The notes under the pieces are model-generated. The model was not told the DNA's origin, ran no database searches, and was given only the letters and a program-made list of their open reading frames with translations. Position numbers and translations under genes: made by a program. From Candidatus Thorarchaeota archaeon (GTDB lineage Archaea; Asgardarchaeota; Thorarchaeia; Thorarchaeales; Thorarchaeaceae), in contig JBHLRZ010000032.1 of the NCBI GenBank assembly GCA_048882045.1, positions 1 to 39,745 on the forward strand: DNA of 39,745 nucleotides, given 5' to 3'. This document shows, in pieces, positions 12,329 through 35,455 of the stretch. The number at the start of each line of letters is the position of its first letter. The stretch's first letter is position 1.

Positions 12329-14158
12329 CTATGTGTTTATCTCAAACCAATCAGGATATTCAGGAATTCCTCTTGCTCCGAAGTTGTAATTCCAGAAGAC
12401 CATCTCATCCCTTCCATGTTCTTCCTCGAACTCGGCCTCTCTGAATAGTCTCTCGACCGCTTCATTTCTGTCAGTCTTGATGTATTTGCCCACCAATAGA
12501 CTGGCCCCTTGTTTCTGAGCTTCATTCATCAAATATGTCAGGAATGTGGTTTCAACTGTCTTTCCCATGGCTCTGCATGAGAATGTGAGGACTTCCATGA
12601 ACCACTTGTCATCCTGCTTGTGGATTAATGAAACACCTATCAGACCGTACTCACCGTATTTGTCATCGAGATTTACGACATAGATCTCATAATCGTCTGA
12701 ACGATAGAACTCCAGGATCTCTTCTTTGGTGTATCTGATAGCTGTAGCATTCAGTTGGTTGGTTCTGAGAATGAGCTCAGTCACACGACCCAGATTTTCT
12801 GGTTTAGCCCTTCTAGGCCAGAGTTTCAGACTACATGCTCGAAGGAAAGACTCCTTGTCATAGAACTGCCGTTCAACACTCTCTCGCATCGCTTGCTGAG
12901 CATACATCTCAGCGCGTTTTGCACTCTCTCCAGTCAACTTGCCTACAGGTTCGAACTCAATTCGATTTAATGCATGGAGTATCTCTGTATCAGGTAGAAC
13001 TAAGACTTGCGGAAGAAATGTCTTGATTTGGTCTCTCTCATATGGATTGTCGTCAAAGAAAGCCAAAGAGTCTATACCAATGTTTAGTTCTTGGGCAATC
13101 TCTGCTAAGTTCTGCGCTTTGTCGTTCCAATTTATCTTCTTGATGGCAAACAGTTTCGAACTCTCTCCCAAGATGTCATCAACAAGTGAGACTAGTGTAC
13201 TATCGTTTTTGCTTGATATTGCGAGAACGATTCCTCGTTTTGTGAGTAGCTCAAGCGCTTTCAGTCTGTTTGAATGAAGGTTGATTCCCTCTACTCCATC
13301 ATCTCGGAGAATTCCATCCCAAAGGGTGTTGTCCAAGTCGATGACAGCACACTTTATTCTCCGACCATGACCAGTGATAACTTTGAGGTGGCCAATCAAG
13401 TCCTTCGCGACGGTGACCGCCCCATCCCTCGTGAGATGTTCATAGATTGCATCAGCATCGCTCTCACGTATCTGGTGACCGACACCTGCAGACAAGAATG
13501 CTTCATCAATGGACAGTACATACATGTCCTCCTCTTGCTTGCTCATCTCCAAGTAGAGCAGATCCAGACGTTTGAGGAACTCACGTAGACTATAGGCGTT
13601 TTCGAGGTGTTTGTAATCAAACCTGCCGTGGGCTGGTCTTATTGCAAGTGGATAATTCATGATAACGAATACAGCTGATAGTTTCTCTCGAGCAAGCTTG
13701 AAACCATTCAATAGTCTGTCCTTTGCCTGTTTCAACTGTTCTTCCTGTTTGGCAAAATCTATTGCGCCGTGTTGAATGTCGAATATGTAGTTGCGAATGT
13801 CCTGGACATCACTCACAACAACTATGCTGGGATTGAACTTGTAAATCCCTCCTTTGTCATCACCGAAAGCCAGGAATGGATTTGATGGTTCACTGTGGTC
13901 AAAGGTGTGATAGCATTGTGCTCCGTTTGCCTCGAGAAACTCCTTGATAAAGGATAGTTCACAACCTCCGACGAAACCTATTTTGAGAGATGACAGGAAC
14001 TCTTTGTCTGCATCCGATACACTTGCACTGGTAGGCGGTTTTGCAGCTCTCTGGGTTTCCTCAGTAAGTCTTCTGAGGATATAGTTTCTATACTTCTTGT
14101 CTCTGACTATCCTTCTCACGATGTTCAATATTCGTTGAGTTTGCACGACTTTCACCAT
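12329..14158 (-). CDS. fkbH: FkbH-like HAD-IIIC glyceryl-ACP synthase (SGNH-like N-terminus, HAD, GNAT-like C-terminus)
   Basis: IDLDNTLWDG, SSKND, INWNDK..N...IAQELNIG.DS..FFDDNPYER, RTNQLN, DKYGEYGLIG, SCRAMG. Confidence 0.92.
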   Translation of the reverse strand: MVKVVQTQRILNIVRRIVRDKKYRNYILRRLTEETQRAAKPPTSASVSDADKEFLSSLKIGFVGGCELSFIKEFLEANGAQCYHTFDHSEPSNPFLAFGDDKGGIYKFNPSIVVVSDVQDIRNYIFDIQHGAIDFAKQEEQLKQAKDRLLNGFKLAREKLSAVFVIMNYPLAIRPAHGRFDYKHLENAYSLREFLKRLDLLYLEMSKQEEDMYVLSIDEAFLSAGVGHQIRESDADAIYEHLTRDGAVTVAKDLIGHLKVITGHGRRIKCAVIDLDNTLWDGILRDDGVEGINLHSNRLKALELLTKRGIVLAISSKNDSTLVSLVDDILGESSKLFAIKKINWNDKAQNLAEIAQELNIGIDSLAFFDDNPYERDQIKTFLPQVLVLPDTEILHALNRIEFEPVGKLTGESAKRAEMYAQQAMRESVERQFYDKESFLRACSLKLWPRRAKPENLGRVTELILRTNQLNATAIRYTKEEILEFYRSDDYEIYVVNLDDKYGEYGLIGVSLIHKQDDKWFMEVLTFSCRAMGKTVETTFLTYLMNEAQKQGASLLVGKYIKTDRNEAVERLFREAEFEEEHGRDEMVFWNYNFGARGIPEYPDWFEINT

Positions 14159-14165
14159 GTTGGGC

Positions 14166-15062
14166 TTAGTTCCACCAGTCAGGATGTATCAGAACCTGTA
14201 CGATTTGACCAACCTTAGCTTCATATAGTCTATTAAAGCGGTATAACACCTTCTTGTCTTTTAATCGCTTTCCACCTGCGTCACTAAGATACATGTCAGA
14301 CTGCACATCATATGCTGATGAGATCTGAAGCGCTTCTTTGTCCACGTTTTCCCATATTTCCCTATTCTTGTATTCCTTCTGTCCGTGTGCAGCCACAACA
14401 CCCATCGGGGCAATCTCCCGAAGTTTCTCAATGTCTTTGCCAAGCAATTCTATTGCCTTCTTTTTGTCACCTTTTGCAACGCTTAGTGTTTCGTAATGAA
14501 GACCGATTTTGAATCCATCATCAACCAGCTTTTTGATTACAGGCACTGCTTCCTCAAAGCAATATTTCTCAGCATGTAAACGAAAGAAGTATGTTGCAGG
14601 TATTCCTAGTTCCGCCTGCACTTCCGCCATCTTGATGGTTCGAGGTAGTGATATGTCAACATCATGACGGAGAATCACATTGACCTTTTCCTGGTTGATG
14701 AGCCCACTTTCATACTCGTCGAACGTAATGACTGAATACCTCTCTTTACTGATAGTAATCATCAAATCTCTGAATTTGTCAATGGAGTATTCTTCTTTCC
14801 ACCAAGTAGCGAAGAGCTCAAGGAAGAGACATATGGTCGCCATAATTGTACAAACCCAAAATGTGGTCAGAGAAGTTGTAGGCCACGGCCACACAAAGGC
14901 TGGCAGAAACCACAGTATCATTGGAATGAGGGTGAGGAAGGGATAGAATCGAAGCATATCGAACAATTGTGTTGCATATCGGTACTGCATGACCAATGAA
15001 AAGCCAACGAACCCCGTTATTGCCACTGATGACACTATCAGAACTATGTCAAGGGGGTCCAT
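14166..15062 (-). CDS. Membrane-anchored polysaccharide deacetylase-like (NodB/CE4-like) protein
   Basis: Three N-terminal TM helices, then LRHDVD, ATYFFR, GLHYE, AAHG, LIHPDWW. Start placed at ATG 15062 after GAGGT; the ORF extends to 15116. Confidence 0.7.
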   Translation of the reverse strand: MDPLDIVLIVSSVAITGFVGFSLVMQYRYATQLFDMLRFYPFLTLIPMILWFLPAFVWPWPTTSLTTFWVCTIMATICLFLELFATWWKEEYSIDKFRDLMITISKERYSVITFDEYESGLINQEKVNVILRHDVDISLPRTIKMAEVQAELGIPATYFFRLHAEKYCFEEAVPVIKKLVDDGFKIGLHYETLSVAKGDKKKAIELLGKDIEKLREIAPMGVVAAHGQKEYKNREIWENVDKEALQISSAYDVQSDMYLSDAGGKRLKDKKVLYRFNRLYEAKVGQIVQVLIHPDWWN

Positions 15063-15210
15063 CTTGTTATACCTCAGGCTGCTCACATTTTTGCAGCGAT
15101 ATAACCATTGTGACACACATCATGAGTGTTTTCTAAAAAGATTCCAAGCTTTCGAGAGGAAACACTTTTCCTGAGAATCGAGAGAACTAACACTCGTTGG
15201 AGCTGCAATC

Positions 15211-16044
15211 TTGTTGATGGATATCATTCAAGGAGAACAAATCGTTAAACTATCCTCTGATACACAGATTGATCTACTTGTCCAAGGCAGTGGAAAGCCT
15301 GTAATGTGGTTACATTCAGGGTTTCGAGGGAGAATTGGGCTTGGGAACCTGATTTCCACTGTTGAAAGAAAACTCAATCAAGCTGACATACACTGGCTAA
15401 ACATAATTCCCAATCTTCCGGGATTTGGCGAAAGCACATCGACCTCCTCTCAGAACAATAATCCATATGAATTGACAGAAAATATCGAGGAACTCGTTAC
15501 TCTTCTTGATTATCCTTCTATCGATATCATAGGATTCAGCCTTGGAGCAAATGTCGCATCTATTTTGGTAAATAGGATACCTGATAGAATTCGCAGAGTT
15601 GTGCTTCTTGGAACTGCAGTTGAAGGAAGGAGTCTTGATGTCTACAGAAAATTGTTGGAATTATATGATAGAGAGGACTGGGAGGGTATTGTCAACGAAA
15701 TAGCTTTGAGTCTTGTTGGTAGGAAAAACCGAAGACAGTATCTCAAGATGATGCCTCTTGTAAAGAAACAGGTAGCTTCTGAGAGGTTTGCGATTGATCT
15801 TACACGGATTCTCTCTTCAGGAGTTCGGTTGGACATTTTCAGTGAACTGGAGAAGATTCCGCATCCAACACTTATGATCTCAGGAGAAGACGACCCCTTT
15901 AGACCAACTCCAAAGCGACTTGAAGTTCTGCAGAAGAAGGAAAATATCAAACTGATTCTTCTTGAAGGGATTGGTCATAATGAGATGGTCTTCCCAAGAC
16001 AAATCGATCTTTCAGATCAAATCCTAGAGTTTCTTGAGGACTGA
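15211..16044 (+). CDS. Alpha/beta hydrolase (possible thioesterase/esterase)
   Basis: NLPGFGES, nucleophile GFSLG, SGEDD acid, GIGHNE His. Confidence 0.88.
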   Translation: MLMDIIQGEQIVKLSSDTQIDLLVQGSGKPVMWLHSGFRGRIGLGNLISTVERKLNQADIHWLNIIPNLPGFGESTSTSSQNNNPYELTENIEELVTLLDYPSIDIIGFSLGANVASILVNRIPDRIRRVVLLGTAVEGRSLDVYRKLLELYDREDWEGIVNEIALSLVGRKNRRQYLKMMPLVKKQVASERFAIDLTRILSSGVRLDIFSELEKIPHPTLMISGEDDPFRPTPKRLEVLQKKENIKLILLEGIGHNEMVFPRQIDLSDQILEFLED

Positions 16045-16811
16045 ACAGCAAGAGTGAGTAAGTAATCCATATTGTGAACAAAGAACACAGGTATACCTAG
16101 CAGGGACTGTTCTGTTAGAGGTGCGACTGTAATTCTTTCTCTTTCTACAGACAATTTGAATTCAAGAGGTGATTTTGACTGTAAAGAAGAAGTCGCTTTG
16201 TATCCAGCTTCCAATGCTGACCATATAGCAGTATGGGCGAATTTCAAGTTAAAGTCAGGATGTGACTTCATCATTAAATTGGTTATTCGACTGATGTCCA
16301 TTTCCGTGTGGTTTTTTGCAATTCGTCTAGCAAGACCGGAGTGACTCGTCTGTTTTTCAATATCCAATCCTATATCACCCTCTCTAATACATGCAGCAAC
16401 TAGATACTCTCCTTTGTGACTGATAGACGCTGCACCTTCAAAGCTGACTTCGGAGTCTTTGAAATTGAAAAAAGGTCTTCCCTCTGAGTCGTTTTTAACA
16501 GTGATTTCTTGATACTTTATTGAGTCCCTTTCCCAAACGTCCTGTAGACAACGTTTGGCTAATACTCTTCCAACATAGTACTGCATCCTTCGACCGTCGT
16601 GCTTGAACTTAGTGAATCTTTGGATCTCGAATTTGGAAAGATGATTTTGCATGACCAAATCAGAAGGGCTCTTTCGAATGAGTGTGCAACCGTGTACAGA
16701 AAGCCCCAAATTTGTTTGTAAAAGCCGAGTATCTTCACTGAATGGAATCCTGTTATCAACCAACTTGCTGAAAGATCTCCTCAAAATCTCTAGCTCTTCC
16801 CTTTCAAGCAA
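16017..16811 (-). CDS. Sfp-type 4'-phosphopantetheinyl transferase
   Basis: GRVLAK, DSEGRP, SISHK, IGLDIEK, WSALEAGYKA. Confidence 0.87.
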   Translation of the reverse strand: MLEREELEILRRSFSKLVDNRIPFSEDTRLLQTNLGLSVHGCTLIRKSPSDLVMQNHLSKFEIQRFTKFKHDGRRMQYYVGRVLAKRCLQDVWERDSIKYQEITVKNDSEGRPFFNFKDSEVSFEGAASISHKGEYLVAACIREGDIGLDIEKQTSHSGLARRIAKNHTEMDISRITNLMMKSHPDFNLKFAHTAIWSALEAGYKATSSLQSKSPLEFKLSVERERITVAPLTEQSLLGIPVFFVHNMDYLLTLAVQSSRNSRI

Positions 16812-16813: not shown

Positions 16814-17884
16814 CTATGCCCCTCGAAATCTGTTTCTCAATTTACCTGCTACAATCTCTGGAGGGATCACAACAACCTCAGTGTCGAGTAAGTGCTGAAA
16901 GAAATGCTCTCCAGCTCTATAGCCTGGTGAGAAATTCTGTCTCGTCACTAACCGGATAAAACACCGACTAGTCGATTCATCTCCAGTTAAGTCTCCTAGT
17001 TCAAGGGCTAGATTGAATGAAGAATAATCCTCATCACCGTAGTAGGCTAAGACCTTTGAAACTCCTTTTGCCAAGTCCATAATGATACTCCCTGACTTAT
17101 CCATAAATCGACCTGATGGTAGAATTCCCCACACTTCATTTGTCTTGCTTGGTGAAAATGGAGTCAGCCAGTGGATAGAACCTGTACTCCCAATATACCG
17201 TTCATCCAATTCTATTTCTACTTCTATGAGATCTTCCCAATATTCATGACCATGCTTTTTATTATACGCTGCGACTGCATCTTGTATCTTCGCTGCATAG
17301 TTCAATGAATCGGAAGATATGATTAACTGCAAGTGAGGATGAACAGCGCTCGCTCCAGCAGGAGGCATATAATTGGAATTCAGAGAACCATAGAGAGTTT
17401 CATCTGTTGGTAGATATGAGATGAATTTCTGTGTTGAGACAAAGGCATCATTGAGAATTTCTGGAGTAAACTCATTTGGTTTCAAGAAATGTTTCTTGGA
17501 CGGAACAATGATCGCATGATATTTTGATAGAGGGAAAAGGTTAGGGAATAGTGTAGACTCGCCTATTGAAATCCTACCTTCAGGAATTATGTCCTTCTCA
17601 AATTTCGGAGTTGAGGTGAGGACCTTGTCAGGACAGAAGAAACATTTCTCACTACTTTCTCTCACCAGTTTGTCTAGAAATTCATAATCTGTGTATCCAA
17701 CAAGAGTCTCATACTTCTCAACGAGTCTCAGACCAATCAAACTCTTGCTTCCCAAAAGTGGATCTCGTCTCACTTCAATATCATGCGTGTCTGAATCAAA
17801 ATTCAACAAGGGATTCAGAATCACAGCTGATTCCTTGTATCTCTCGAGTTTGATCCTACCAGATGCACCTGCCATCTGCATCAC
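16814..17884 (-). CDS. Galactose-1-phosphate uridylyltransferase-like (GalT/HIT) nucleotidyltransferase
   Basis: EVRRDPLLG, CFFCP, FPNLFP, AGASAVHPHLQ. Confidence 0.85.
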   Translation of the reverse strand: MMQMAGASGRIKLERYKESAVILNPLLNFDSDTHDIEVRRDPLLGSKSLIGLRLVEKYETLVGYTDYEFLDKLVRESSEKCFFCPDKVLTSTPKFEKDIIPEGRISIGESTLFPNLFPLSKYHAIIVPSKKHFLKPNEFTPEILNDAFVSTQKFISYLPTDETLYGSLNSNYMPPAGASAVHPHLQLIISSDSLNYAAKIQDAVAAYNKKHGHEYWEDLIEVEIELDERYIGSTGSIHWLTPFSPSKTNEVWGILPSGRFMDKSGSIIMDLAKGVSKVLAYYGDEDYSSFNLALELGDLTGDESTSRCFIRLVTRQNFSPGYRAGEHFFQHLLDTEVVVIPPEIVAGKLRNRFRGA

Positions 17885-18858
17885 TCATCTTTCTTCTTCA
17901 TTTTAGCTACCTTTGTTCCAAACCGTTTGGCATGGTCTTTGACCACCAATCTCCAAGCCATGTTTGGCATGGCGTAGAATCCAGCCACTGACTCATTTTC
18001 AGGGACGTCTCTCACAGCAATAGCATTGATCAAGACACTGGCATTATCTCCAATAACAAGTCCATTAGAAACAGTTGCACCAATACCAATCCAGCAGTTC
18101 TCACCGATTACAGTACTTCCACCTATACAACTTGAGGCTGCAAGTTGACTATTTGATTTGACATGCACATTATGACCGATATGGACCATGTTGTCAATCT
18201 TCACACGATCTTCAAGAATTGTATCGCCGAATGTTCCACGATCCACACACGAGCTATTTCCAAATTCAACATCATCACCAAATTGCACACCACCAATGTG
18301 AATAAGACGGTGGATATTGCCCTCAGCGTCCTTCATTATACGATAACCGTCTCCTCCAATACTAGCATTCGCATCTATGATGTTTCTCTTGCCGATCCTC
18401 ACTCTATCATAGATAGCAGTGTTGGCAAAGATCTCGGTGTCGTCGTCGATGGTCACATCACTCCCAATCACAACATATGGATGAATCCTGACCCGATCTC
18501 CCAGAGTCACATTCCGACCAAATCGAACAGTGGGGTCGATGACACACTCTTTTCCTACAGTTGGCTTAGAGTCATCTGGTGTGAAGGACTTGACATCTTG
18601 ATGCCAAGTATTGTGAATCTCAAGAAATGCAACTAGTGCGTCGTCCACTTTAAAGTATGAATTCCCCTCAATCTTGGAAGCTTTGTCGTAAAATTTCGGT
18701 TCAACAAGAATGTATGCTCCTTTGTTTGGGGTGATGAGTTTCATGAACTGGACACGTGCGATATAGCTAATGTGTTTCTCCACCAAGTTCTGAATGCCAC
18801 ATGTGCCCTTTGCATCATTGGGAATTCCATATTTCTTGAGGACCTCTTTGATTATCAT
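17881..18858 (-). CDS. LpxD-like left-handed beta-helix acyl-ACP-dependent N-acyltransferase
   Basis: Hexapeptide repeats; IGGDGY, HIGGV.FGDDVEFG..SCVDRGTFGDTIL...VKIDNMVHIGHNV (LpxD catalytic His region). Confidence 0.85.
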   Translation of the reverse strand: MIIKEVLKKYGIPNDAKGTCGIQNLVEKHISYIARVQFMKLITPNKGAYILVEPKFYDKASKIEGNSYFKVDDALVAFLEIHNTWHQDVKSFTPDDSKPTVGKECVIDPTVRFGRNVTLGDRVRIHPYVVIGSDVTIDDDTEIFANTAIYDRVRIGKRNIIDANASIGGDGYRIMKDAEGNIHRLIHIGGVQFGDDVEFGNSSCVDRGTFGDTILEDRVKIDNMVHIGHNVHVKSNSQLAASSCIGGSTVIGENCWIGIGATVSNGLVIGDNASVLINAIAVRDVPENESVAGFYAMPNMAWRLVVKDHAKRFGTKVAKMKKKDE

Positions 18859-18921
18859 TATAGATCGATTTCATTGAATGTGCTCCGCCCTTTTGAATTA
18901 TACTTCGAAATGAAGTTGAAA

Positions 18922-20208
18922 CTATTCCAATAATGTCAAGTTATTCCAACATACTAAGCGACTCAACAAGAGAATACCATCCCAAGGTGAATCATAGATA
19001 TGCATCTGTCCAGGGGGTACTATTCTAGCAACACCACGGTACATGACGCCTTCAGCAAACTTCATTGACTTTTCTTGGTTGAGTATGCCATTACCAACTG
19101 TTTGAACATTACGAGTTATGAGATCAATTACATCCAGAACATTGGCTATCGGCTTTAGGAAAATGGTTCTTGATTGAATAGGTTCTTCTAATGCAAGTTT
19201 GCTGTCAATCAAAATTGTCCAATCATTCGTTTTTGATGCCATGACGTCTTTCTCAAGATCTAGAGCATACTCAGCTCGTTTGTTGATTATCATAGTGCCA
19301 CGGCCTGCATCGAAATCATTCTTTGGCATAAGCCTAGAAAGGCGTTCAAACTCATTGGATAGTTGTTGAGCAAAATGCGTCACACCTTCCATATTGGTTT
19401 CTAGGAAAATAACGTGGGGTGATGAACAGGCACTCTGCTCGAAAAGAACTGAATCCGTAGCAATGTTTCTTATGAATCTATCAAGTTTTTCAGAGGTCAG
19501 TGCCTCTTTATCAAAGACAGCGAAGGAGTACTTTGGTCCAAAAACAATGTCTTCACAATGGGTTTTCTTGGGCAAGTTTGTGATTGCTTCCACAGCTTCT
19601 TTCCCTCCCCAAACGACCCTTGCATCAGCTATCCTTGACAAAGCAGAATTGGCTTTGAAGTCATCGGATGGAAAATACACAACCGCTACCGACTTGAGAA
19701 GGTCTTTTCCTGTATAACCGTTTGATTCAACGGTGGCAAACAATTGTAGGATTGGAAGAACCGTTGATAGACTGACCTCTGGGATTCGGAGGATATTTCC
19801 ATTCTTTCCTATTATTGATTGAAATAGTGAGAAAAGACTCAGGGTTGGAATATTGCCAGCAATCCAATGACTCACTACACCTCTAGGAAAGGCTCGAAGC
19901 TTCTTCCTTTCATCTCCAACAAATGACTCGAGATAATCCTTGGATCCTAGATTGGTTTCGATGATTTTTCTGATGTTCTCACGCCTAAGCCAATTTGAGA
20001 GAAATGCAATTCCTCCAATTCCTTTCACTTTCTCGTCTCGAACAAGCAAACGACTGAAACTGTGAAGCATTTCAATTATGTCATTAACTGGAACACCAAA
20101 AAGAGAAATCATCCCTTCACGGATTTGTGTTTCGATTTTTATCAAGTCTTCAACTACGAGAACAGGATCATGAAACTCTCCATTGCTTGTAAGAAGTTGG
20201 ATTGATAT
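18922..20208 (-). CDS. LuxC-like acyl-CoA/acyl-protein reductase
   Basis: PRGVVSHWIAGNIP, WGGKEAV, FGPKYS, EQSACSSP. The frame is open ~20 codons upstream of the TTG at 20145, up to the luxE stop; start uncertain. Confidence 0.88.
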   Translation of the reverse strand: MSIQLLTSNGEFHDPVLVVEDLIKIETQIREGMISLFGVPVNDIIEMLHSFSRLLVRDEKVKGIGGIAFLSNWLRRENIRKIIETNLGSKDYLESFVGDERKKLRAFPRGVVSHWIAGNIPTLSLFSLFQSIIGKNGNILRIPEVSLSTVLPILQLFATVESNGYTGKDLLKSVAVVYFPSDDFKANSALSRIADARVVWGGKEAVEAITNLPKKTHCEDIVFGPKYSFAVFDKEALTSEKLDRFIRNIATDSVLFEQSACSSPHVIFLETNMEGVTHFAQQLSNEFERLSRLMPKNDFDAGRGTMIINKRAEYALDLEKDVMASKTNDWTILIDSKLALEEPIQSRTIFLKPIANVLDVIDLITRNVQTVGNGILNQEKSMKFAEGVMYRGVARIVPPGQMHIYDSPWDGILLLSRLVCWNNLTLLE

Positions 20209-20210
20209 GA

Positions 20211-22387: not shown

Positions 22388-22391
22388 CTCG

Positions 22392-24127: not shown

Positions 24128-24133
24128 CTCATA

Positions 24134-25120: not shown

Positions 25121-25123
25121 TTC

Positions 25124-25202
25124 TCTAATCGAGCTAGCATTTTGCTATCTCGATTAGATCATTCTTTATGTTTTTCCAAATAATAGTAAGACACTATTGG
25201 AA
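25124..25202. terminator. Long near-perfect hairpin plus second hairpin between convergent genes
   Basis: TCTAATCGAG-C-TAGCA / TTT / TGCTA-T-CTCGATTAGA (25124-25158, 15 bp, one mismatch), T-rich tract, then AATAGT/ACTATT stem. Confidence 0.65.
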
Positions 25203-25209
25203 TTTAGAT

Positions 25210-25719: not shown

Positions 25720-25723
25720 ATTT

Positions 25724-26752: not shown

Positions 26753-26834
26753 GTTCGTACGACTCCATATTGATTCCAAATGGCTTGGATGTGTCACGCT
26801 ATTTAATCTATTCTAGAATTTGGATGTTGTACTA

Positions 26835-27764: not shown

Positions 27765-27915
27765 ACGATGTCAATACTGAAGCTGACCATCGTGGTTATG
27801 TTGTTTTCGGTGACTATCAGAGGTTATTATCAAAAGTCCCCGGAAGAGATAACAAATTTGATTCTAATGATAAGAATTCCAGCAACTATGCTACGCTTAA
27901 GTGGGAAAAATGCAA

Positions 27916-29040
27916 CTAAAAGAAGTCGTGTATGGCTTTGCCAATGTATTCGATTTCTTCTTTGGTCATCTGTGAAAATAGTGGAAGTGTAAGGACCTGG
28001 TCAGAAAGTTTCTGCGTTGTTGGTAATAGAACCTCTTCATTCAAAAGACCTTTGAAAACACTATATTGATGTATAGGTTCAAAATAGACTCTTGATGTAA
28101 TACCTCTCTCTGATAGGTGATTTGCAAGAGCATCTCTTTTCTCCTTTCCATCAATTACTCGTATTGTATACATTTGATATACGGCGTAGTATTTTCCACT
28201 TGGCGGTTTTGGAGTAATGATGTCATCTATTGCATTGAGTTGGTTGTGCAAAAGCTGTGCATTCTTCCTACGTTGTTCAATACTAGTATTGACTCTACTA
28301 AGTTGAGAAAGACCAAGCGCAGCCAATATTGTTGACATCCGAAAGTTGTGTCCCACATCAATATAGTCCAAACTTTTCACGTCAGCGAAATAATCTCCAC
28401 TCACAACGCGACCGTACGACCTGAACAATTTGAGTTTCTCATACACCTCATCATCATCCGTCACCACACATCCTCCTTCACTCGTCGTGAAAATTTTGTT
28501 GTGACAGAAGCTGAAGATGGCTGACTCACCGAATGTTCCTACACATTTGCCATCATATTGAGCACCAAATGATTGGGCCGCATCTTCAATGAGAAGTAGG
28601 TTATGCTCGCTCGCCAGCTCTTTTAGGTCATCTATTTTGCATGACATTCCTCCATAGTGAATTGGCATAATAGCTCGCGTCTTTGAAGTTATTCTATTTC
28701 TCACATCGATGGGATCTAGTCCAAAGGTTTCTTCCTCAATATCAGCAAACACAGGTTTTGCATCAACATACATAGGTGCAAAAGCAGTCGCGATGAAAGT
28801 AAATGACGGAACAATGATTTCATCATGTTTCTGAATTCCATGGGCGTTCATTGCAGCGAAGAGTGCTGAACCGCCAGAGTTGAATACAACGCAGTGCTTC
28901 ACGCCTAAATATTCAGCAATCGCTACTTCGAAATCTTCAATTTCTGCTCCAGTACACCAATACTTCCCCGATTTTATTATCCTCTCTATCGCACTGATAT
29001 CTTCATCATCCCAGAATATTCTGAATAGGGGGATTTCCAT
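27916..29040 (-). CDS. DegT/DnrJ/EryC1/StrS PLP-dependent sugar aminotransferase (LegC/PglE-like)
   Basis: PSFTFIATA, IEDAAQSFGA, FSFCHNKIFTTSEGG, LTLPLF. Confidence 0.93.
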   Translation of the reverse strand: MEIPLFRIFWDDEDISAIERIIKSGKYWCTGAEIEDFEVAIAEYLGVKHCVVFNSGGSALFAAMNAHGIQKHDEIIVPSFTFIATAFAPMYVDAKPVFADIEEETFGLDPIDVRNRITSKTRAIMPIHYGGMSCKIDDLKELASEHNLLLIEDAAQSFGAQYDGKCVGTFGESAIFSFCHNKIFTTSEGGCVVTDDDEVYEKLKLFRSYGRVVSGDYFADVKSLDYIDVGHNFRMSTILAALGLSQLSRVNTSIEQRRKNAQLLHNQLNAIDDIITPKPPSGKYYAVYQMYTIRVIDGKEKRDALANHLSERGITSRVYFEPIHQYSVFKGLLNEEVLLPTTQKLSDQVLTLPLFSQMTKEEIEYIGKAIHDFF

Positions 29041-29043
29041 TGT

Positions 29044-29445
29044 CTAATCTCCTCCCTTATTGTGTACTTTTGCAGGAATACCAAATGCTACTGCTCCATC
29101 AGGAATGTCTTTGTTTACAAAGCTTAATGCTCCAATAACTGCATTCTCACCAATTGTTACACCAGGCATTACAACACTGTGAGAACCAATCTTTGCATTT
29201 TTCTTGATGACCACCTTTCCTGTCTTGTTGTCTATTGTTGAGTGAGAGTAAATGGAGCAATGTGAACCGACTTCAACTCCTTCTTGGATTTCAACTCCAT
29301 ATTGTGCATTGATATAGGTGAAAGAACCAATGTCTGTATTTGGTCCCAATTCGAGGTTCTCGTGATACTGGCATTTCCAATGCCATTTTGTCAAACCACC
29401 TTCATCAAATTCTGGAGATCTCCAGTTAGGGAATCGTTCACTCAT
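29044..29445 (-). CDS. Short hexapeptide-repeat acyltransferase
   Basis: VVIKKNAKIGSHSVVMPGVTIGENAVIGALSFVNKDIP....FGIPAK; GGTGAGG upstream of ATG 29445 (ORF extends to 29457). Confidence 0.88.
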   Translation of the reverse strand: MSERFPNWRSPEFDEGGLTKWHWKCQYHENLELGPNTDIGSFTYINAQYGVEIQEGVEVGSHCSIYSHSTIDNKTGKVVIKKNAKIGSHSVVMPGVTIGENAVIGALSFVNKDIPDGAVAFGIPAKVHNKGGD

Positions 29446-29457
29446 TATCCTCACCAT

Positions 29458-30624
29458 TCAGTACGTCATCTTTTTCCGAAGGAGCTTTGCATCCAATTCA
29501 ACTTTGGAAATGATATCAACAATTCTCTTACTTGCATTACCATCTCCGTAAGGTGACTCCTTTCTCATAACGATATCTAGGAATTTCTTGTCCGTGACAG
29601 ATTTTCTTATCGCTTCTTCCAAACTCTGCTTGTCATATCCTACCTCAATAACATTCCGAGCTTTTTCTCTTCCTTTTTGCCTTGTACCAATACAGACGTA
29701 GGGTGTCCCAAGAGATGGAGCTTCAATAATTCCACTACTAGAATTTCCTACAAAAATTGCTGCCATTTCAAGAATCGCAATATAATCAAGGTGTTGTAGA
29801 TTTTCGAATACATGGATATCCGGACTCTTCTCACTGTATCCACGTACTTTTTCTATGATAGCTGTCCCTCCAGGGTAGTCATTAGGAAATATAATCACTA
29901 TCTCCATATCCATTTCATGCGCTACAGTAGATACTGATTGAAGAACAAGATCGACCTGTTGTCCTGATTGTTCCCATTCGGTTGAAGTCGGATGATACAC
30001 AACTAACACGAATGGTTTCCTAGGGATAGCGTACTTTTTTTCCAACATTTCTCTGGTCGGTAGTGTAGTTTTCAAGATTGCATCCAGAGTAAGAGCACCG
30101 ACATTGAACACTCTCCAGGGCTCTTCACCCAGTTTCAATACTCTCCCTTTGCTTTGGTCGCTCATGGTGAAATGGAGATGCGCCATCTTTGTAATAGCAT
30201 GTCTCATCACATGGTCAATATCTCCCATTCCTACATCTCCACCAGCGATATGCGCCACTGGTATATTCATGGTTGTGGCACTAATAGTCGCAGCAAATGG
30301 TTCAATGCGATCTCCAAAAACGACAAGGAGGTCAGGCGAATCTTTTCGAAATACTTTGGAAAATTCAACAATCCCTTTGCCAATTGACATTGCCAAATCA
30401 TATTCGTCGCTCATTGCTTTTGATCCCATATCAATAATATGCGAGATCTTATGACCATCTCTTTCAATCTCCTCAATTGAGTTGCCATAGTCCTTCAAAA
30501 GATGCATGCCTGTTACCAACAACTGAAGTTTGAGATTGGAGTCATTCTCAATAGTTCTTAATAGAGGTTCAAGATATCCATATTCCGCTCGAGTTCCTGT
30601 AACTACTCCAACTATTCTTTTCAT
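29458..30624 (-). CDS. neuC: Hydrolysing UDP/GDP-N-acyl-hexosamine 2-epimerase (NeuC/LegG)
   Basis: TGTRAEYG, TGMHL, GDRIE, HIAGG, RHAITKMAHLHF, GNSSSGIIEAP, GTRQKGRE, YGDGNAS. Confidence 0.93.
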   Translation of the reverse strand: MKRIVGVVTGTRAEYGYLEPLLRTIENDSNLKLQLLVTGMHLLKDYGNSIEEIERDGHKISHIIDMGSKAMSDEYDLAMSIGKGIVEFSKVFRKDSPDLLVVFGDRIEPFAATISATTMNIPVAHIAGGDVGMGDIDHVMRHAITKMAHLHFTMSDQSKGRVLKLGEEPWRVFNVGALTLDAILKTTLPTREMLEKKYAIPRKPFVLVVYHPTSTEWEQSGQQVDLVLQSVSTVAHEMDMEIVIIFPNDYPGGTAIIEKVRGYSEKSPDIHVFENLQHLDYIAILEMAAIFVGNSSSGIIEAPSLGTPYVCIGTRQKGREKARNVIEVGYDKQSLEEAIRKSVTDKKFLDIVMRKESPYGDGNASKRIVDIISKVELDAKLLRKKMTY

Positions 30625-30648
30625 CAATATACTGCTCCTATGTACAAA

Positions 30649-31698
30649 TCATTCTATCATATCCCAAGTGAGCATACTGTCTTCTTGAATCTCTTTGATA
30701 GCTCTTTTCCCTACCACATCTTCGAGGTGCTTTGGAGCGATACCTATACCTGGCCTTTTGATATCAATCATTTCTCTGGTAATTATCGCTCCTTCTGGGA
30801 TTAATGTAATAGACACAAGGCTCTTGCGAGCAATTTCTCTTATCTTGATTTCTTCCTTAGTAGGTTCTTTTATTCCAGTCCCCAATGCAGCTTCAATGTT
30901 TCTAATGGAATCCACTAGTTCGCGAAGTTGATTTGGTTCAAGAGATGCCTTATGGTCCGGTCCAGGGAGATTTCTATCTGTGGTGAAGTGTTTCTCTATC
31001 ATACACGCTCCCATAGCAACTGCAGCTACTGACGCAATTATTCCCATGGTATGGTCTGAAAATCCTACTGGGAGATTAAACTCCCGCTTCAACGTATCCA
31101 TTGCTCTAAGGTTAGAATCTCTGATGTCAGATGGATAATTTGTCAGACAATGAAGTAATAGCAATTCACTTCCTCCAGCCTCTTGAATTGCTTGAACTGC
31201 TTCTCGAACTTCTCGTAAACTGGACATTCCTGTTGAAAGGAAGATTGGTTTTCCTTTCGAGGCAACCAACTTGAGAAAAGGGAGATTTGTCAAGTCTCCA
31301 GATCCTATCTTATACGCTGGCATAATTGAATCGAGAAAATCAATAGCATCCGCAGAGTGTGGAGTTGAAAGGAAAAGGATACCTTTCTCGTCACAATATT
31401 CCTTTAGCTCAACAAATGAATCGTAGGAGAGTTCTAAACGTTTTATCATGTCAAACTGACTGTCATGTTCTCTTGCCTGATCTTTTTGATATTCAGCCAT
31501 AGCAGCTTCTTTTGTTGTGAGATTCTCTGTCTTGAACGTCTGGAATTTGACAGCATCTACGCCCGAGGCTGCGGCATCATCCACAAGTTTCTTTGCTATT
31601 CTCAAATCACCATTGTGATTGACGCCAGCCTCTGCTATTATGAAGACAGGTTCTCCATCACCGATTCGCCTGTTGCCAAATTTGATGCTGTATGACAT
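30649..31698 (-). CDS. neuB: Nonulosonic acid synthase with C-terminal SAF domain (NeuB/LegI)
   Basis: IAEAGVNHNGD, VKFQTF, KIGSGD, STGMS, LHC..NYP, GFSDHT, IEKHFT, GPDH.ASL, KRPG.GI. Confidence 0.95.
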   Translation of the reverse strand: MSYSIKFGNRRIGDGEPVFIIAEAGVNHNGDLRIAKKLVDDAAASGVDAVKFQTFKTENLTTKEAAMAEYQKDQAREHDSQFDMIKRLELSYDSFVELKEYCDEKGILFLSTPHSADAIDFLDSIMPAYKIGSGDLTNLPFLKLVASKGKPIFLSTGMSSLREVREAVQAIQEAGGSELLLLHCLTNYPSDIRDSNLRAMDTLKREFNLPVGFSDHTMGIIASVAAVAMGACMIEKHFTTDRNLPGPDHKASLEPNQLRELVDSIRNIEAALGTGIKEPTKEEIKIREIARKSLVSITLIPEGAIITREMIDIKRPGIGIAPKHLEDVVGKRAIKEIQEDSMLTWDMIE

Positions 31699-31718
31699 AT
31701 TCTCTATCTTCCTTTCTG

Positions 31719-32426
31719 TTAATCGAATTTGAAAAGACCTGATTTCAGAAGATACTCGATGAATCTGAAATCGATTTCTCTATCAATATCTATTGAGGAT
31801 ATCTCATCCATAACAAAGACTCTCTCATTTTCACAATGAAGGCCATTCGCTTTGGAGAGATAATCTCTGTTGTAGATATAGATGGACCCATTAATTTCAT
31901 ACACCTTTGGAGTATCTTGTCTTCTGAAGAATTCCCCTTCGAGTTTCTTTGATAGGTGCGCGTTATCATTATCATCTAGCTCGACCATGTTGAAATAGGG
32001 ATTCTTTTTGGCCTCTGTAACGCTATAGAGAACATCAGCTCTTGTGTTCAAGAATTTTTGCAAAGCACGTTCAATGTCATTTGTTGTCCTTAGAGGAGAT
32101 GTTGGATCAAGATCAACGATCGTATCATAATTGATTCCTTCCTCCTCCTCACAGTATCGCAATGCGTGTTTGATAACTGGAATCTTTGGTGCTGTGTCTG
32201 ATGATAATTCCGCAGGTCGTAGGAACGGTGTTTCAGCACCATATTCACTTGCTATTTTAGCAATTTCTGGTGAATCGGTTGAGCATATGATTCTATCAGC
32301 TTTTCCCCACTTTTTCATGGCCTTTATTGTATAATAAATAAGTGGCCTACCGTCCAGATTTCTAATATTCTTGTTCTTGACTCCTTTTGAGCCGCCCCTT
32401 GCACAGATTGTGCCCAGTATCCTCAT
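31719..32426 (-). CDS. neuA: CMP-nonulosonate synthetase (acylneuraminate cytidylyltransferase, NeuA/LegF)
   Basis: ARGGSKGVKNKN, STDS, RPAELSSD, PTSPLR, RRQD.P..Y.ING, SIDID...DF. Confidence 0.94.
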   Translation of the reverse strand: MRILGTICARGGSKGVKNKNIRNLDGRPLIYYTIKAMKKWGKADRIICSTDSPEIAKIASEYGAETPFLRPAELSSDTAPKIPVIKHALRYCEEEEGINYDTIVDLDPTSPLRTTNDIERALQKFLNTRADVLYSVTEAKKNPYFNMVELDDNDNAHLSKKLEGEFFRRQDTPKVYEINGSIYIYNRDYLSKANGLHCENERVFVMDEISSIDIDREIDFRFIEYLLKSGLFKFD

Positions 32427-32709: not shown

Positions 32710-34134
32710 ATGACTAATGTTAGTGAGATGTTTCAGGAGTTTATCCGGCTTGAGAAAGACATGAATCTCTTTAGGCGTAAGATTCAAGGAGTCCTTTTTT
32801 GGGAACATGTTAGATGCTCGATATTCTTCCTCATATCAGGAATGAAGTCTGAAGAAGTTCCATCAAAGATGAGTAAGATTTCTTTCTTTGAAAGGATGAA
32901 GTTTCATTTATTGTCATTCATTCGAGTGAATAGAAATCCGTTTTTTGGGTTTAGAAAGGATATTCTTTTTTTCTCGAATGCTCGAAGAGTCTTACGAAAG
33001 GATGGAAGATGGTGGGATATATACACAGACTATATCGTCAACCAGCTAGAAATGTCATTTCGCTCAATCGAGCAGAGTATTAGTTTGAAACATCGGATGC
33101 CCGCTAAAACAAGAGGATTGCGTTACATTGATTTCTTGCACTCGCTGTCATACATCCTCCAAAAGCTCAACCTGATCTCATTTTCATTGACTAAGGATGA
33201 AGCAGCGTTCCTTGGTTCCCTTGGGAACGAAATTCGTACACGTTTCCATATTAAGATGGATGTTGAAAACTTCGTTATACAACGTCTTCGCACAAGGAAC
33301 ATTCGTGTCCCATTTTATCAATGGTTATTGCGATGGATAAAACCCAAGGTTACGATTGTTACTACTGACTGTGGAATGGAGGATTTCATCGAAGCTGCTC
33401 GATCGCTTGGAATTCCAGTTATCGAGTTTCAACATGGTAACATATCTCCCTATCATCCGGGATATTCATTCCCAGATGAGCATCAAACAATACGGACATT
33501 TGCAGACTATCTTTTTGTGTTCGGTGACTTTTGGAGGGACATAGCGACATTTCCATTGGATCCTGATCACATCATTAGTGTTGGATTTCCATATCTTGAA
33601 GAAGAAATGCGACTTCACTCAACGGTTGGAAAGAAGCGCCAAATCCTTGTGATTTCACAAAATCTCGTTGGTAAAACATTATCACGATTCGCTGTAGATC
33701 TCTCTAAGTTTCCAGGCTTGAATTATAAAATAGTGTACAAGTTACATCCTGCAGAGTACAAAGATTGGCGTATCAATTATCCTTGGCTGGTTGATTCCGA
33801 GATAGACGTTGTTGATGGTAACGTGCCTTCTCTATACAGGTTATTTGCTGAATCGGAGACTCAGTTGGGTGTTTATTCAACTGCAATATATGAAGGGCTT
33901 GCATTCGGTCTTCGTACGTTTCTACTTGATATGGAGGAAACCCAGCATATGCAAAATCTTCTTGATGTTGGAGTGGTTGAGAAGATATCTTCCATTGAGG
34001 ATTTCATTTCAATAATAGAGAAAGAAGTCGATGTAGAGTCCTTTAATCAAGATGTCTTCTTTAGAAAGGACTCTATTAGAAACATAATCGAGGCAATCAA
34101 GACTATTGCTTTCAACAGGCCAGATATAGAATAA
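32710..34134 (+). CDS. Putative nonulosonate transferase (sialyltransferase/capsule-biosynthesis GT-B-like)
   Basis: VIEFQHG, VFGDFW, LVISQ, YKLHPAE, STAIYEGLAFG. HP and S/T..E motifs are typical of CMP-sugar GT-B transferases; divergent from neuA. Confidence 0.65.
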   Translation: MTNVSEMFQEFIRLEKDMNLFRRKIQGVLFWEHVRCSIFFLISGMKSEEVPSKMSKISFFERMKFHLLSFIRVNRNPFFGFRKDILFFSNARRVLRKDGRWWDIYTDYIVNQLEMSFRSIEQSISLKHRMPAKTRGLRYIDFLHSLSYILQKLNLISFSLTKDEAAFLGSLGNEIRTRFHIKMDVENFVIQRLRTRNIRVPFYQWLLRWIKPKVTIVTTDCGMEDFIEAARSLGIPVIEFQHGNISPYHPGYSFPDEHQTIRTFADYLFVFGDFWRDIATFPLDPDHIISVGFPYLEEEMRLHSTVGKKRQILVISQNLVGKTLSRFAVDLSKFPGLNYKIVYKLHPAEYKDWRINYPWLVDSEIDVVDGNVPSLYRLFAESETQLGVYSTAIYEGLAFGLRTFLLDMEETQHMQNLLDVGVVEKISSIEDFISIIEKEVDVESFNQDVFFRKDSIRNIIEAIKTIAFNRPDIE

Positions 34135-34231
34135 TCAGTTTCATCGCCTTCATGAAGAATTACTCAAGTACTGAGTAAACTATATCAACACCATCAGTTT
34201 TTGGCTTGTCCAACTATTCGGAGTTCCCCAT

Positions 34232-35455
34232 ATGAAGATCAATCGAACTAGTCTAGAATCAGTCTTCCAATTCGGTGGCGAAATGTTTTCTGAATCAGTT
34301 TTTGATGCAAAGAGTGTGGAACTTGACATAGTGCGGTCTGACTCAAGAGTGCTCAACTCACAAACAGAATTTTCAACAGAGGATTATTCGAAACTTAAAG
34401 AATCGCTCCTAAATGCAACACGCGAAAAGTTTGAACCTCATCAGGATAAGAAGATAGGATTCCTCATATCTGGTGGAGTTGATTCTACTCTATCATTATA
34501 TCTATTGAAGCAGGTCTATCCTGATGCTCAAGTAACAACATATCATACTGATTGGAAAACCCCTGAACGTTCAGAACTTCCTTTTGCTCAAATAGCTGCA
34601 AAGTTTGTTGGTCAACCATTGAAAATTATTGATACAAGTTCTGACGCTCAGATACCCTTTATTGACGATGCTCTATCAAAATCACTAACAATTTCCTACA
34701 GCACTATTCCAGTATACATGGCCTTCAATGAAATGGTGAATGATGATATTGAAATCGCGGTGAGTGCGCTTGGGCTTGATGAGTTATTTGCTGGCTATTA
34801 TATTCATAAACGATATTTTGAGAAGGGTTCTTTTGGCTTTGTACCATACTCTAGCAGATTGCTCCGTGGACGTTACTATCGGGCAGCGGCAAGACGTTGG
34901 GGTACTACAAAGACCTGGCTGTTGAGCATGATAGTCAATAGCCCTTGGTCGGAGTTTGTGCTTGAAAATGATCTTGATATCAAAGATTGTTACGATAAAC
35001 ATCTCGCAGCCAATAATCTATGGAACTCAATCCATAACTACCTTTTTGATGCAATGATTTGCAACTTTGCTAATATGACCTCGCGTGCAGCATGGGCGAA
35101 TGGTCTAGATGTCATTTATCCATATATTCACAATGAGCTGATCGAATTCTGCCTTTCTCAGTCGCCCATCTCTCGAATCAACAAGGCACCGATTAGACAT
35201 ATGATGAGATCAGAATTGAATTTTCCCGAAGAGATTGCTTCACGTGGAGAAAAGTGGGACAAGATGGGATGGGGCGCAACTCCTCAGCCATACTTCAGCA
35301 ATAAGAGCTACATGGATGCAATTTCTACCGATCCCTCGCTATCCAAGGATTGGTTTACAGAAGAATCTAGAGCATTACTTCTAAACATAAATGAGAATCC
35401 CACAACAAATGGTCTTAATATGGCTCTTTTCATGAAGACACTGGAACTTATCTAA
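34232..35455 (+). CDS. Asparagine-synthase-like ATP pyrophosphatase/amide ligase lacking the glutaminase domain
   Basis: PP-loop ISGGVDS, LGLDELFAGY, V.YPY, NKAPIR..M, K.GW; no N-terminal Cys-Ntn domain. Confidence 0.8.
   Translation: MKINRTSLESVFQFGGEMFSESVFDAKSVELDIVRSDSRVLNSQTEFSTEDYSKLKESLLNATREKFEPHQDKKIGFLISGGVDSTLSLYLLKQVYPDAQVTTYHTDWKTPERSELPFAQIAAKFVGQPLKIIDTSSDAQIPFIDDALSKSLTISYSTIPVYMAFNEMVNDDIEIAVSALGLDELFAGYYIHKRYFEKGSFGFVPYSSRLLRGRYYRAAARRWGTTKTWLLSMIVNSPWSEFVLENDLDIKDCYDKHLAANNLWNSIHNYLFDAMICNFANMTSRAAWANGLDVIYPYIHNELIEFCLSQSPISRINKAPIRHMMRSELNFPEEIASRGEKWDKMGWGATPQPYFSNKSYMDAISTDPSLSKDWFTEESRALLLNINENPTTNGLNMALFMKTLELI

Follow-up and report, generated by a model that had tools for sequence, protein, structure and literature searches.

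We analyzed the whole of a 39.7-kb contig (C32, JBHLRZ010000032.1; hereafter, the window) from a Candidatus Thorarchaeota archaeon, which belongs to an archaeal metagenome-assembled genome (MAG) of 3.6 Mb that is 93% complete (G000). Our data indicate that the window, with its genes assigned as below, probably holds most of a hypervariable, mosaic surface-glycan island of separable modules: a legionaminic acid (Leg)-type nonulosonate block (module A), an acyl cassette that includes an acyl carrier protein (ACP; module B), and an FkbH-family gene next to a CE4-like deacetylase gene (module C). The minus strand carries nearly all genes, from 32426 down to 12329, and modules A and B are co-oriented on it with 2.29 kb between them (24541 to 26835). 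An initial annotation of this DNA had placed the two in the same way, about 2.3 kb apart, and the genes that it named were all confirmed at their places by family searches. Two gene identities go beyond it, a GalT-like 356-aa gene and a CE4-like 316-codon gene. The annotation went on to treat both modules as one linked system, and it named beforehand what would overturn this idea, namely modules that are unlinked in related genomes. This is what we found: modules A, B, and C each occur alone in Thorarchaeia, so the inference of one system fails on its own terms.

We compared 87 genomes of the class Thorarchaeia, including 27 other genomes of the same genus. A LuxE gene, which belongs to module B, is present in four of the 87 and in none of the 27, NeuB-type synthases of the kind found in module A are present in 22 of the 87, and both blocks occur together only in G000. 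The ten-gene cassette of module B (MaoC to α/β-hydrolase) stands at the same site, beside the genes MoCF-HD-TatD, in G062 and G023, two genomes from two genera other than that of G000, with amino acid identities to G000 of 46 to 90% and 29 to 74%, respectively. Neither of them contains FkbH, and genome-wide they have no true NeuB, only matches of approximately 30 bits that resemble a weak second match in G000 on contig C7. Within 20 kb of their cassettes there is no DegT, dehydratase, or NeuA gene, and the single match in a NeuC search of G023 (23%) is a WecB-type epimerase. Module A is found by itself in other genomes. G028 and G067 contain a colinear Leg block (58 to 75% identity) together with the membrane-protein pair and the 474-aa glycosyltransferase gene described below, G037 (NeuB 80% identical) retains NeuA, NeuB, part of NeuC, and the glycosyltransferase gene before its contig ends, and G066 has NeuA, NeuB, and NeuC on a short contig; all four lack LuxE and the cassette. 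Module C stands beside TatD in G033, G045, and G039, which are of the same genus as G000 and carry neither module A nor module B. Outside the class, Promethearchaeum syntrophicum MK-D1 contains a very similar cassette as well as NeuB, located 670 kb apart. Close to the cassette at this locus (L012, 721.9 to 743.0 kb) are a PF00953 initiating glycosyltransferase and a DUF354 gene, and the locus also includes a 230-aa hexapeptide transferase, a DegT gene, and an HMG-CoA-synthase-like gene.

The islands that hold the cassette alone differ from each other on their TatD side. That of G062 (L008, 8507 to 11471) contains FkbM-type and other methyltransferases and a DUF346-repeat protein, while that of G023 (L011) contains a WecB epimerase, an LPG_synthase_TM protein, and a PMT_2 protein. 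These contents show that the island changes its genes freely. Between G000 and G062, seven cassette genes are 77 to 90% identical versus 49 to 63% for the flanking housekeeping genes, and this excess similarity of the cassette over its flanks across genera indicates that the cassette has moved laterally. Since each module is found alone in relatives, the island reads as a hot spot of module exchange, and gene content and identities suggest that it is a recombination hot spot with exchangeable modules, like bacterial O-antigen loci.

The juxtaposition of modules A and B in G000 is real because the junction is spanned by contigs assembled independently from each of three sequencing runs. Positions 17040 to 31999 are covered, unbroken and at even depth, by single Logan contigs from these three runs, which come from two studies and may include the source sample; an assembly chimera or a binning artefact was thus rejected as the cause of the adjacency. 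The island spans TatD to PIG-L, approximately 28 kb, of which the window holds most. It is bordered by MoCF-HD-TatD on one side and, on the adjoining contig C16, by a PIG-L deacetylase gene and a CCG-domain gene on the other. The end of C32 (39669 to 39745) overlaps the reverse-complemented end of C16 by 77 nt, so that the contigs can be joined, and the join completes a GT1 gene of 378 aa that is followed by the PIG-L deacetylase and CCG-domain genes. The far border is formed by PIG-L and CCG genes in G023 and by the CCG gene, with PIG-L further in, in G062. The G+C content of the island is 0.39 to 0.42, versus 0.44 to 0.45 in its flank.

If modules A and B did work as an integrated system, hydroxyacyl-ACP (and/or glyceryl-ACP) would donate its acyl group to the 4-amine of a uridine diphosphate (UDP)-sugar or to Leg, and N7- or N5-hydroxyacyl cytidine monophosphate (CMP)-Leg would cap surface glycoproteins. 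We consider this possible but doubtful. The two modules are adjacent, co-oriented, and physically contiguous, and their association is not confined to this genome. From a scan in which each species was represented by one genome, we retained 80 LuxE loci, each with flanks of 10 kb; their core genes are LuxE (80), AMP-ligase (79), and LuxC (74). Of these loci, 24, spread over many phyla, have a NeuB-type gene no more than 10 kb from LuxE, and 39 have a DegT gene at such a distance. On the LuxE tree, a minimum of 10 changes is required to explain NeuB linkage, so a single accident of inheritance does not account for it; in 500 shuffles of the labels, the count never fell to the observed 13. The linked loci comprise 22 of 52 in the bacterial LuxE clade and only 2 of 30 in the clade of Asgard archaea, Clostridium, and Planctomycetota, to which the window belongs, and the latter figure argues against integration. 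The second linked locus in that clade is from a Woesearchaeote, in which ACP, ligase, LuxE, LuxC, and SDR genes lie within a NeuC-type cluster, and the gene directly before ACP encodes a full-length PglD/NeuD-type N-acyltransferase (167 bits; cut-off, 161) fused to a holo-ACP synthase. Through this fusion, at least one archaeon has the amino-sugar N-acyltransferase of a Leg-type pathway joined to a carrier-protein system. A radical SAM/SPASM gene also lies inside the NeuC-type cluster with this fusion (Woesearchaeota MAG L026, 3484 to 4788 and 7219 to 8262).

Integration would also agree with the flagellin islands of Aeromonas and enterobacteria, where gene sets of the same kind are flanked by pse genes, with the existence of nonulosonates that carry N-hydroxybutyryl and N-glyceroyl groups (PMC5378307), and with an FkbH-domain gene in the flagellar glycosylation locus of Campylobacter jejuni. 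Against it stand the solitary blocks of related Thorarchaeia and the 670 kb between the blocks of P. syntrophicum. Furthermore, one of three strong cassette carriers has NeuB, which is about the level of chance given 22 of 87 genomes, the Leg block retains an intact acetyltransferase of its own, and the acyltransferase of the cassette resembles LpxD and not PglD, with its gene translationally coupled to that of the GalT-like enzyme. We therefore favor an island of separable modules.

Module A comprises six genes in the order NeuA-NeuB-NeuC-acetyltransferase-DegT-dehydratase on the minus strand. NeuA (31719 to 32426) is a predicted CMP-nonulosonate synthetase (PF02348, 83 bits) that scores 145 bits, below the cut-off, on the PseF model. 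The nonulosonate synthase (30649 to 31698) reaches 461 bits on TIGR03569 (cut-off, 400), a model that cannot tell LegI from NeuB, and 305 bits on the PseI model, under the cut-off of 340, which makes it NeuB/LegI-type rather than PseI. The hydrolysing UDP-sugar 2-epimerase (29458 to 30627) scores 412 bits on TIGR03568 (cut-off, 236) and only 118 bits on the WecB model, and it is of the NeuC/LegG type, not a PseG hydrolase; the NeuC and NeuB models likewise do not separate LegG and LegI. It is followed by a short hexapeptide N-acetyltransferase of 137 aa (29044 to 29457; PF00132), which has no PglD N-terminal domain, finds the nucleoside diphosphate (NDP)-amino-sugar N-acetyltransferases 4mzu and 7s3u as its top PDB matches, and keeps its position in G028 and G067 with 72 to 75% identity. 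The DegT-family sugar 4-aminotransferase (27916 to 29040; PF01041, 365 bits) scores 290 bits on the PseC model and 240 bits on the LegC model, both under the cut-offs. Last is a UDP-N-acetylglucosamine (UDP-GlcNAc) 4,6-dehydratase of the PseB/CapD/FnlA/PglF family (26835 to 27764; PF02719, 264 bits), with 246 bits on TIGR03589, below 408, and 66 bits on the LegB model.

The best reading of module A is a Leg-type (NeuC-dependent, 5,7-diamino) nonulosonate pathway with a CMP-activated product, because enzymes of the NeuC and NeuB types are present and PseG and PseH are absent. In the proposed route, the dehydratase, 4-aminotransferase, acetyltransferase, NeuC, NeuB, and NeuA would act in turn to give a CMP-activated 5,7-diamino Leg-type sugar, and the divergent GT-B candidate would go with the module as its transferase. 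The same six genes could instead be divided into two pathways, in which NeuC, NeuB, and NeuA make CMP-N-acetylneuraminic acid (CMP-Neu5Ac) and the dehydratase, aminotransferase, and acetyltransferase make a UDP-di-N-acetyl-bacillosamine-type sugar. The three Neu enzymes do pass or approach models of Neu5Ac enzymes, which do not separate LegG or LegI, and a gap of 151 nt lies between the DegT and dehydratase genes. This division is nevertheless quite unlikely, as G028 and G067 conserve all six genes as one colinear block, and legionaminic acid synthesis in Halorubrum sp. PV6 has been ascribed to the same set of six enzymes (PMC6137143). The Leg-type pathway appears to be complete and self-sufficient, requiring nothing from its neighbors: the 4-aminotransferase and the N-acetyltransferase both lie inside the cluster, at positions conserved in G028 and G067, and the N-acetyltransferase is kept in every copy whose contig covers that stretch (G028 and G067). 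Of the Leg-type sugar with hydroxyacyl groups proposed in the initial annotation, the Leg-type pathway thus stands as the best reading, while the link of a hydroxyacyl group to Leg comes from the adjacency of the modules.

Module B begins with a MaoC-type (R)-specific enoyl hydratase (24134 to 24541, minus strand like all cassette genes but the last; PF01575, 75 bits), which is 90% identical in G062 and 71% in G023 and has a counterpart in the P. syntrophicum locus. The ACP (23888 to 24127) has 79 aa with the serine motif WDSVTHM; it is the sole PP-binding-like match by Pfam in the G000 genome, has orthologues in G062 (84%) and G023 (68%), and is 34% identical to a second ACP on contig C70. 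Next come an AMP-forming acid-thiol ligase (22392 to 23891; PF00501, 242 bits, and PF13193), an iron-containing alcohol dehydrogenase (Fe-ADH; 21311 to 22387; PF00465 and PF25137), a LuxE-type, adenylating acyl-protein synthetase (20211 to 21329; PF04443, 209 bits), and a LuxC-type acyl-thioester reductase (18922 to 20145; PF05893, 258 bits). The ligase and Fe-ADH are the counterparts of WbeL and WbeM of Vibrio cholerae. Homologues of LuxE are 58 to 60% identical in Loki-, Sigyn-, and Hodarchaeia and 54 to 57% in Clostridium.

The next gene encodes a predicted LpxD-like, acyl-ACP-dependent N-acyltransferase of 325 aa (17881 to 18858), so that the two distinct hexapeptide acyltransferases of the initial annotation, this one and the 137-aa protein, were both recovered. 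It passes the broader subfamily model NF002060 (221 bits; cut-off, 207) and no other, with 212 bits on the equivalog TIGR01853, under 242.5. Residues 22 to 296 match LpxD chains in the PDB (E 2e-29), the segment HIGHNV aligns with QIAHNV, and the N-terminal domain, β-helix, and catalytic-His segment are all retained, while no LpxC was found in the 93% complete G000 genome. The following gene (16814 to 17884) encodes a GalT-like nucleotidyl transferase of the HIT superfamily (356 aa), and its start shares 4 nt with the stop of the LpxD-like one, an indication of translational coupling. The family models HIT and GalT score weakly here, and membership is based on motifs and Atlas neighbors: the closest Atlas clusters carry the name galactose-1-phosphate uridylyltransferase (score 0.97), and across three genomes CFFC, a CxxC zinc site, is conserved and an H-x-H motif is kept (HPH; HAH in G062). 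Orthologues are 65% identical in G062 and 54% in G023. An Sfp-type 4'-phosphopantetheinyl transferase (PPTase; 16017 to 16811; PF22624 and PF01648), conserved in G062, G023, and P. syntrophicum, and a plus-strand α/β-hydrolase (15211 to 16044; PF00561, 55 bits), a candidate LuxD-like acyl-ACP thioesterase or transferase, complete the cassette. The hydrolase is present in the cassettes of G062 (67%) and G023 (48%), and an α/β-hydrolase also adjoins the PPTase of P. syntrophicum. A tblastn search over 82 LuxE loci matched the GalT-like gene, PPTase, and α/β-hydrolase only in G062 and G023.

Module B is a true relative of the tetronate genes of V. cholerae O1 and seems to be self-sufficient. The PPTase would activate the ACP, and the AMP-ligase would load a small di-acid, probably C4, whose enoyl form MaoC may hydrate. 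LuxE would then adenylate the free distal carboxylate, LuxC would convert it to the aldehyde, and Fe-ADH would give the alcohol, leaving a hydroxy- or dihydroxy-acyl-S-ACP with which the LpxD-like enzyme could acylate a UDP-amino sugar at its amine. The GalT-like enzyme probably supplies a UDP-hexosamine for this step. Could the cassette instead be a Lux-type acid reductase that releases a free aldehyde or alcohol, for instance for lipids or a small metabolite, and takes no part in glycan tailoring? LuxC, LuxE, and an α/β-hydrolase do match the roles of the LuxCDE fatty-acid reductase, and tblastn found no homologue of the Leg block or the aminotransferase within 10 kb of the cassettes of the closest bacterial relatives (Clostridium). 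We regard this as very unlikely, as the Thorarchaeia cassette always lies within a glycosyltransferase-rich island and includes a sugar N-acyltransferase of LpxD type and a GalT-like enzyme, DegT genes lie within 10 kb of LuxE in nearly half of the loci (39 of 80), and mutations in wbeL, wbeM, and wbeN of V. cholerae alter the O1 antigen (PMC3441752, PMC9915646).

For a cassette that tailors glycans, the question is which amine receives the acyl group. Because the cassette brings its own LpxD-like and coupled GalT-like genes, the 2-amine of a UDP-hexosamine has about an even chance of being the acceptor. There is a lesser chance that a Leg precursor or Leg itself is acylated, which the adjacency of LuxE and NeuB in 24 of 80 loci, including the Woesearchaeote PglD-PPTase fusion, makes possible, and a smaller one that the acceptor is something else. 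In Asgard archaea, which lack lipid A, the LpxD-type transferase and GalT-like enzyme might also make a UDP-N-(hydroxyacyl)hexosamine that replaces UDP-GlcNAc and feeds the Leg pathway, with an N5-hydroxyacyl nonulosonate as the result. We consider this unlikely; if true, it would be an archaeal counterpart of the N-glycolyl type of sialic acid variation, by a route not described for any nonulosonate.

Module C consists of two genes on the minus strand. The FkbH-family protein (12329 to 14158; 609 aa) scores 257 bits on TIGR01686 (cut-off, 147) and 59 bits on TIGR01681, and it combines a HAD-IIIC phosphatase with an N-terminal domain and an acyl-transfer part at the C terminus, which makes it a predicted glyceryl donor. 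Its orthologues (82 to 86%) adjoin TatD in G033, G045, and G039, which have no LuxE cassette or NeuB block. The only ACP in the window lies 10 kb from FkbH, within module B, and tblastn with this ACP (E 1e-6) found no ACP beside the orthologues in G033 and G045. Since the orthologues lack that ACP, FkbH need not use it, and sharing of the cassette ACP is not required. The initial annotation had counted two routes to acyl-ACP; the FkbH on which the second depends is real, whereas its orthologues sit apart from the cassette ACP. The neighboring gene (14166 to 15116; 316 codons) encodes a candidate membrane-anchored deacetylase of the CE4/NodB-like fold, which has 298 aa if, as is probable, the true start lies about 18 codons further in. 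The protein has no match in Pfam or NCBIfam. Its AlphaFold2 model (pLDDT 90.5) matches CE4 deacetylases by Foldseek (E 3e-5, prob 1.00), and it has three hydrophobic helices within the first 105 aa and invariant RHDVD and His residues. The database holds 69 homologues, and all organism names given are of Asgard archaea (Thor, Hod, Odin, and Heimdall). In the relatives compared, this gene always accompanies the 609-aa FkbH; the deacetylase probably frees the amine of a glycan sugar, to which FkbH would add a glycerate-derived group. G000 has a second FkbH on contig C70 (L098, 210 to 2767), a protein of 607 aa with FkbH_N, HAD, and GNAT-like parts, whose neighbors are a 164-aa PPTase and a 79-aa ACP paralogue with the motif WDSMNHL. 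FkbH of this type is the commoner one, present in approximately 40 of the 87 Thorarchaeia genomes, and a carrier-protein system is therefore common in the class.

Several points weigh against the reading of the window given here. The roles of the genes are predicted from family resemblance, and the ACP scores under the Pfam cut-off (17.6 bits). The dehydratase of module A is closer to inverting enzymes of the PseB/CapD type than to PglF (207 bits to PDB 6bwc and 179 bits to PseB 2gn4, compared with 125 bits to PglF 5bju), so that the stereoisomer of the nonulosonate is not fixed by sequence. The choice of acceptor for module B draws on resemblance to LpxD and GalT and on the genes that travel together, and LpxD-like enzymes could have shifted their acceptor. 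The compared genomes are MAGs that are 83 to 93% complete, and the absence of NeuB from G023 and G062 is accordingly not absolute. Finally, one glycan island usually builds one glycan; coupling of modules A and B in G000 is thus possible.

Divergent from NeuA, as the initial annotation had observed, two plus-strand genes follow. The first encodes a protein of 474 aa (32710 to 34134; AlphaFold2 pLDDT 89) of the glycosyltransferase fold GT-B, a candidate for the transfer of the CMP-nonulosonate. It has no match among Pfam, NCBIfam, or PDB sequences, and a fold search did not pinpoint a sialyltransferase: the fold is that of a generic GT-B, with Z scores of 18 to UDP-GlcNAc 2-epimerases, 17.6 to MurG, and 16.6 to TarL, and the polysialyltransferase 5wc6 comes at rank 14 (Z 15.6, 15% identity). 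Asgard archaea have many members of the family, in which the QHG, HP, and ST..E motifs are invariant, and the gene accompanies the Leg block in G028, G037, and G067. An HP motif marks bacterial sialyltransferases, and the nearest Atlas cluster carries the automatic name 'sialyltransferase family'. The label sialyltransferase-like is thus backed by context and the invariant HP motif but not by the fold, and from context it is a fair guess that the protein is a nonulosonate transferase. The second gene (34232 to 35455; PF00733, 86 bits) encodes an Asn-synthase-like, ATP-dependent amide ligase that has the synthetase domain only, without glutaminase, and aligns to positions 226 to 514 of the 517 positions of the AsnB model TIGR01536. 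Homologues of 48 to 49% identity are present in G023, which lacks NeuB, and in G028, which has it. Because NeuB-less G023 has a 48% homologue, the gene is not Leg-specific. NCBIfam yielded no assignment of a PseA (acetamidino) type for it. It is as likely as anything that the enzyme amidates a uronic acid; a UDP-N-acetylmannosamine (UDP-ManNAc)-type dehydrogenase is encoded nearby. The rest of the island (35448 to 39745) contains a GT2 gene on the minus strand and, on the plus strand, a GT4 gene, the dehydrogenase gene, and the GT1 gene cut by the contig end.

Between modules A and B, two overlapping minus-strand genes (25210 to 26797) encode membrane proteins of 182 and 357 aa with predicted hydrophobic helices. 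Sequence searches of both against the PDB, Pfam, and NCBIfam gave no match, and the 357-aa protein resembles a duplicated form of the 182-aa one. Homologues of the pair are found in islands with the Leg block only (G028 and G067), with the cassette only (G062), and with FkbH only (G033 and G045). The pair is a common core of this type of island and may serve as a general part of export or assembly. The spacer of approximately 670 nt that separates the pair from the cassette (24542 to 25209) holds an open reading frame of 122 codons (24578 to 24946), which has no match in the PDB, Pfam, or NCBIfam, lacks homologues in the relatives, is oddly rich in Cys, and is probably not a gene.

The flank of the island fits an archaeal origin in Thorarchaeia, with an Nre gene and two Rpb5 genes, as do the names of the closest homologues. 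The archaeal Nre gene lies upstream (1111 to 5477) with the gene of a membrane protein that has a T2SSF domain and may belong to a type IV pilus or an archaellum-like system. The Rpb5 genes form a tandem pair (7989 to 9184), and both encode fusions of an Mrr-cat-like N-terminal domain with an Rpb5 C-terminal domain.

Our data suggest that the surface glycans of Thorarchaea diversify by module swapping at one chromosomal hot spot, much like bacterial O-antigen loci. This bears on how Thorarchaea vary their surfaces, for example against viruses, and implies no special, eukaryote-like glycocalyx. A glycocalyx-like trait tied to eukaryotes, which the initial annotation had proposed, finds no support, as NeuB-type genes are a patchy accessory (22 of 87 genomes). 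Cassettes of LuxC, LuxE, ligase, and ACP occur in surface-sugar islands from cholera O1 to flagellin, and as far as we found in the literature their product has not been demonstrated. The Asgard cassette is unusually complete, with its own PPTase, hydratase, hydrolase, LpxD-like transferase, and GalT-like enzyme, and what makes it valuable is that it opens the chemistry of a widespread orphan cassette to study. Since the cultured P. syntrophicum carries a closely related set, this chemistry can be tested in real cells; Lokiarchaeum ossiferum has a LuxE homologue of similar identity, known from the LuxE sequence alone.

Module A adds to a kind of block already known from archaea. Halorubrum sp. 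PV6 makes legionaminic acid by a six-enzyme route (LegB, C, H, G, I, and F), and the sugar caps an N-glycan (PMC6137143). Like this route, module A combines archaeal enzymes of the NeuC, NeuB, and NeuA types with a dehydratase, an aminotransferase, and an acetyltransferase. Unlike it, module A is one tight colinear block, its acetyltransferase is a 137-aa β-helix protein, its dehydratase is nearer to PseB/CapD than to PglF or LegB, and no formyltransferase is present. For module C, the comparison is with cj1302, the FkbH-domain gene of the C. jejuni flagellar glycosylation locus; the FkbH domain of the window is likewise well above its cut-off and lies in a glycan locus with nonulosonate genes. 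It differs from FkbH proteins that load glyceryl-ACP in that its orthologues lack a neighboring ACP and invariably come with a CE4-like membrane deacetylase. As of 2017, no genes had been identified for the N-glyceroyl group in Pse5Am7Gra of Tannerella (PMC5378307).

In its order of ACP, AMP-ligase, Fe-ADH, LuxE, LuxC, and hexapeptide transferase, module B is colinear with wbeK-L-M-N-O of V. cholerae. WbeK is reportedly an ACP and WbeO a hexapeptide acetyltransferase, as Morona et al. are said to have described in 1995. The wbe genes (rfbKLMNO, VC0248-VC0252) are the O1 tetronate genes of a surface-glycan locus, which gives rise to an amino sugar whose amine carries a C4 dihydroxy-acyl group (PMC3441752, PMC9915646). 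WbeM (VC0250) appears as an iron-containing alcohol dehydrogenase in PMC9915646, and WbeN is a fusion of LuxC and LuxE of 2478 nt (PMC3441752, PMC9915646); we drew the parallel from the gene-product annotations in these two papers. In the Thorarchaeon, by contrast, LuxC and LuxE are separate genes, the transferase is LpxD-like with 325 aa, MaoC, a GalT-like enzyme, a PPTase, and an α/β-hydrolase are added, and the host is an archaeon. The island contains no GDP-perosamine genes, so module B is not the same system as that of the 3-deoxy-L-glycero-tetronyl-perosamine of V. cholerae. The transferase shares with LpxD its domain order, the catalytic His segment, and a passed NF002060 model, which implies an acyl-ACP donor and a UDP-sugar amine as the acceptor; it departs from LpxD in scoring below the equivalog cut-off, in a genome without detected LpxC, in its glycan-island setting, and in an adjoining ACP whose load is probably a short hydroxy-acid. 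Aeromonas group II and enterobacterial flagellin islands contain sets of ACP, FabG, AMP-synthetase, LuxE, and LuxC among pse genes, with a function not shown (PMC7874193, PMC4875605). These sets and module B share a core of LuxE, LuxC, ligase, and ACP beside nonulosonate genes in a variable, glycosyltransferase-rich island. The flagellin-island sets have a FabG-type reductase instead of Fe-ADH, pse (pseudaminic) surroundings, a LuxE of the other major clade, and no LpxD-like/GalT-like pair. Judged by its gene content, the acyl block of the Thorarchaeon differs from the known tetronate and flagellin-island cassettes by this pair and by its apparent self-sufficiency.

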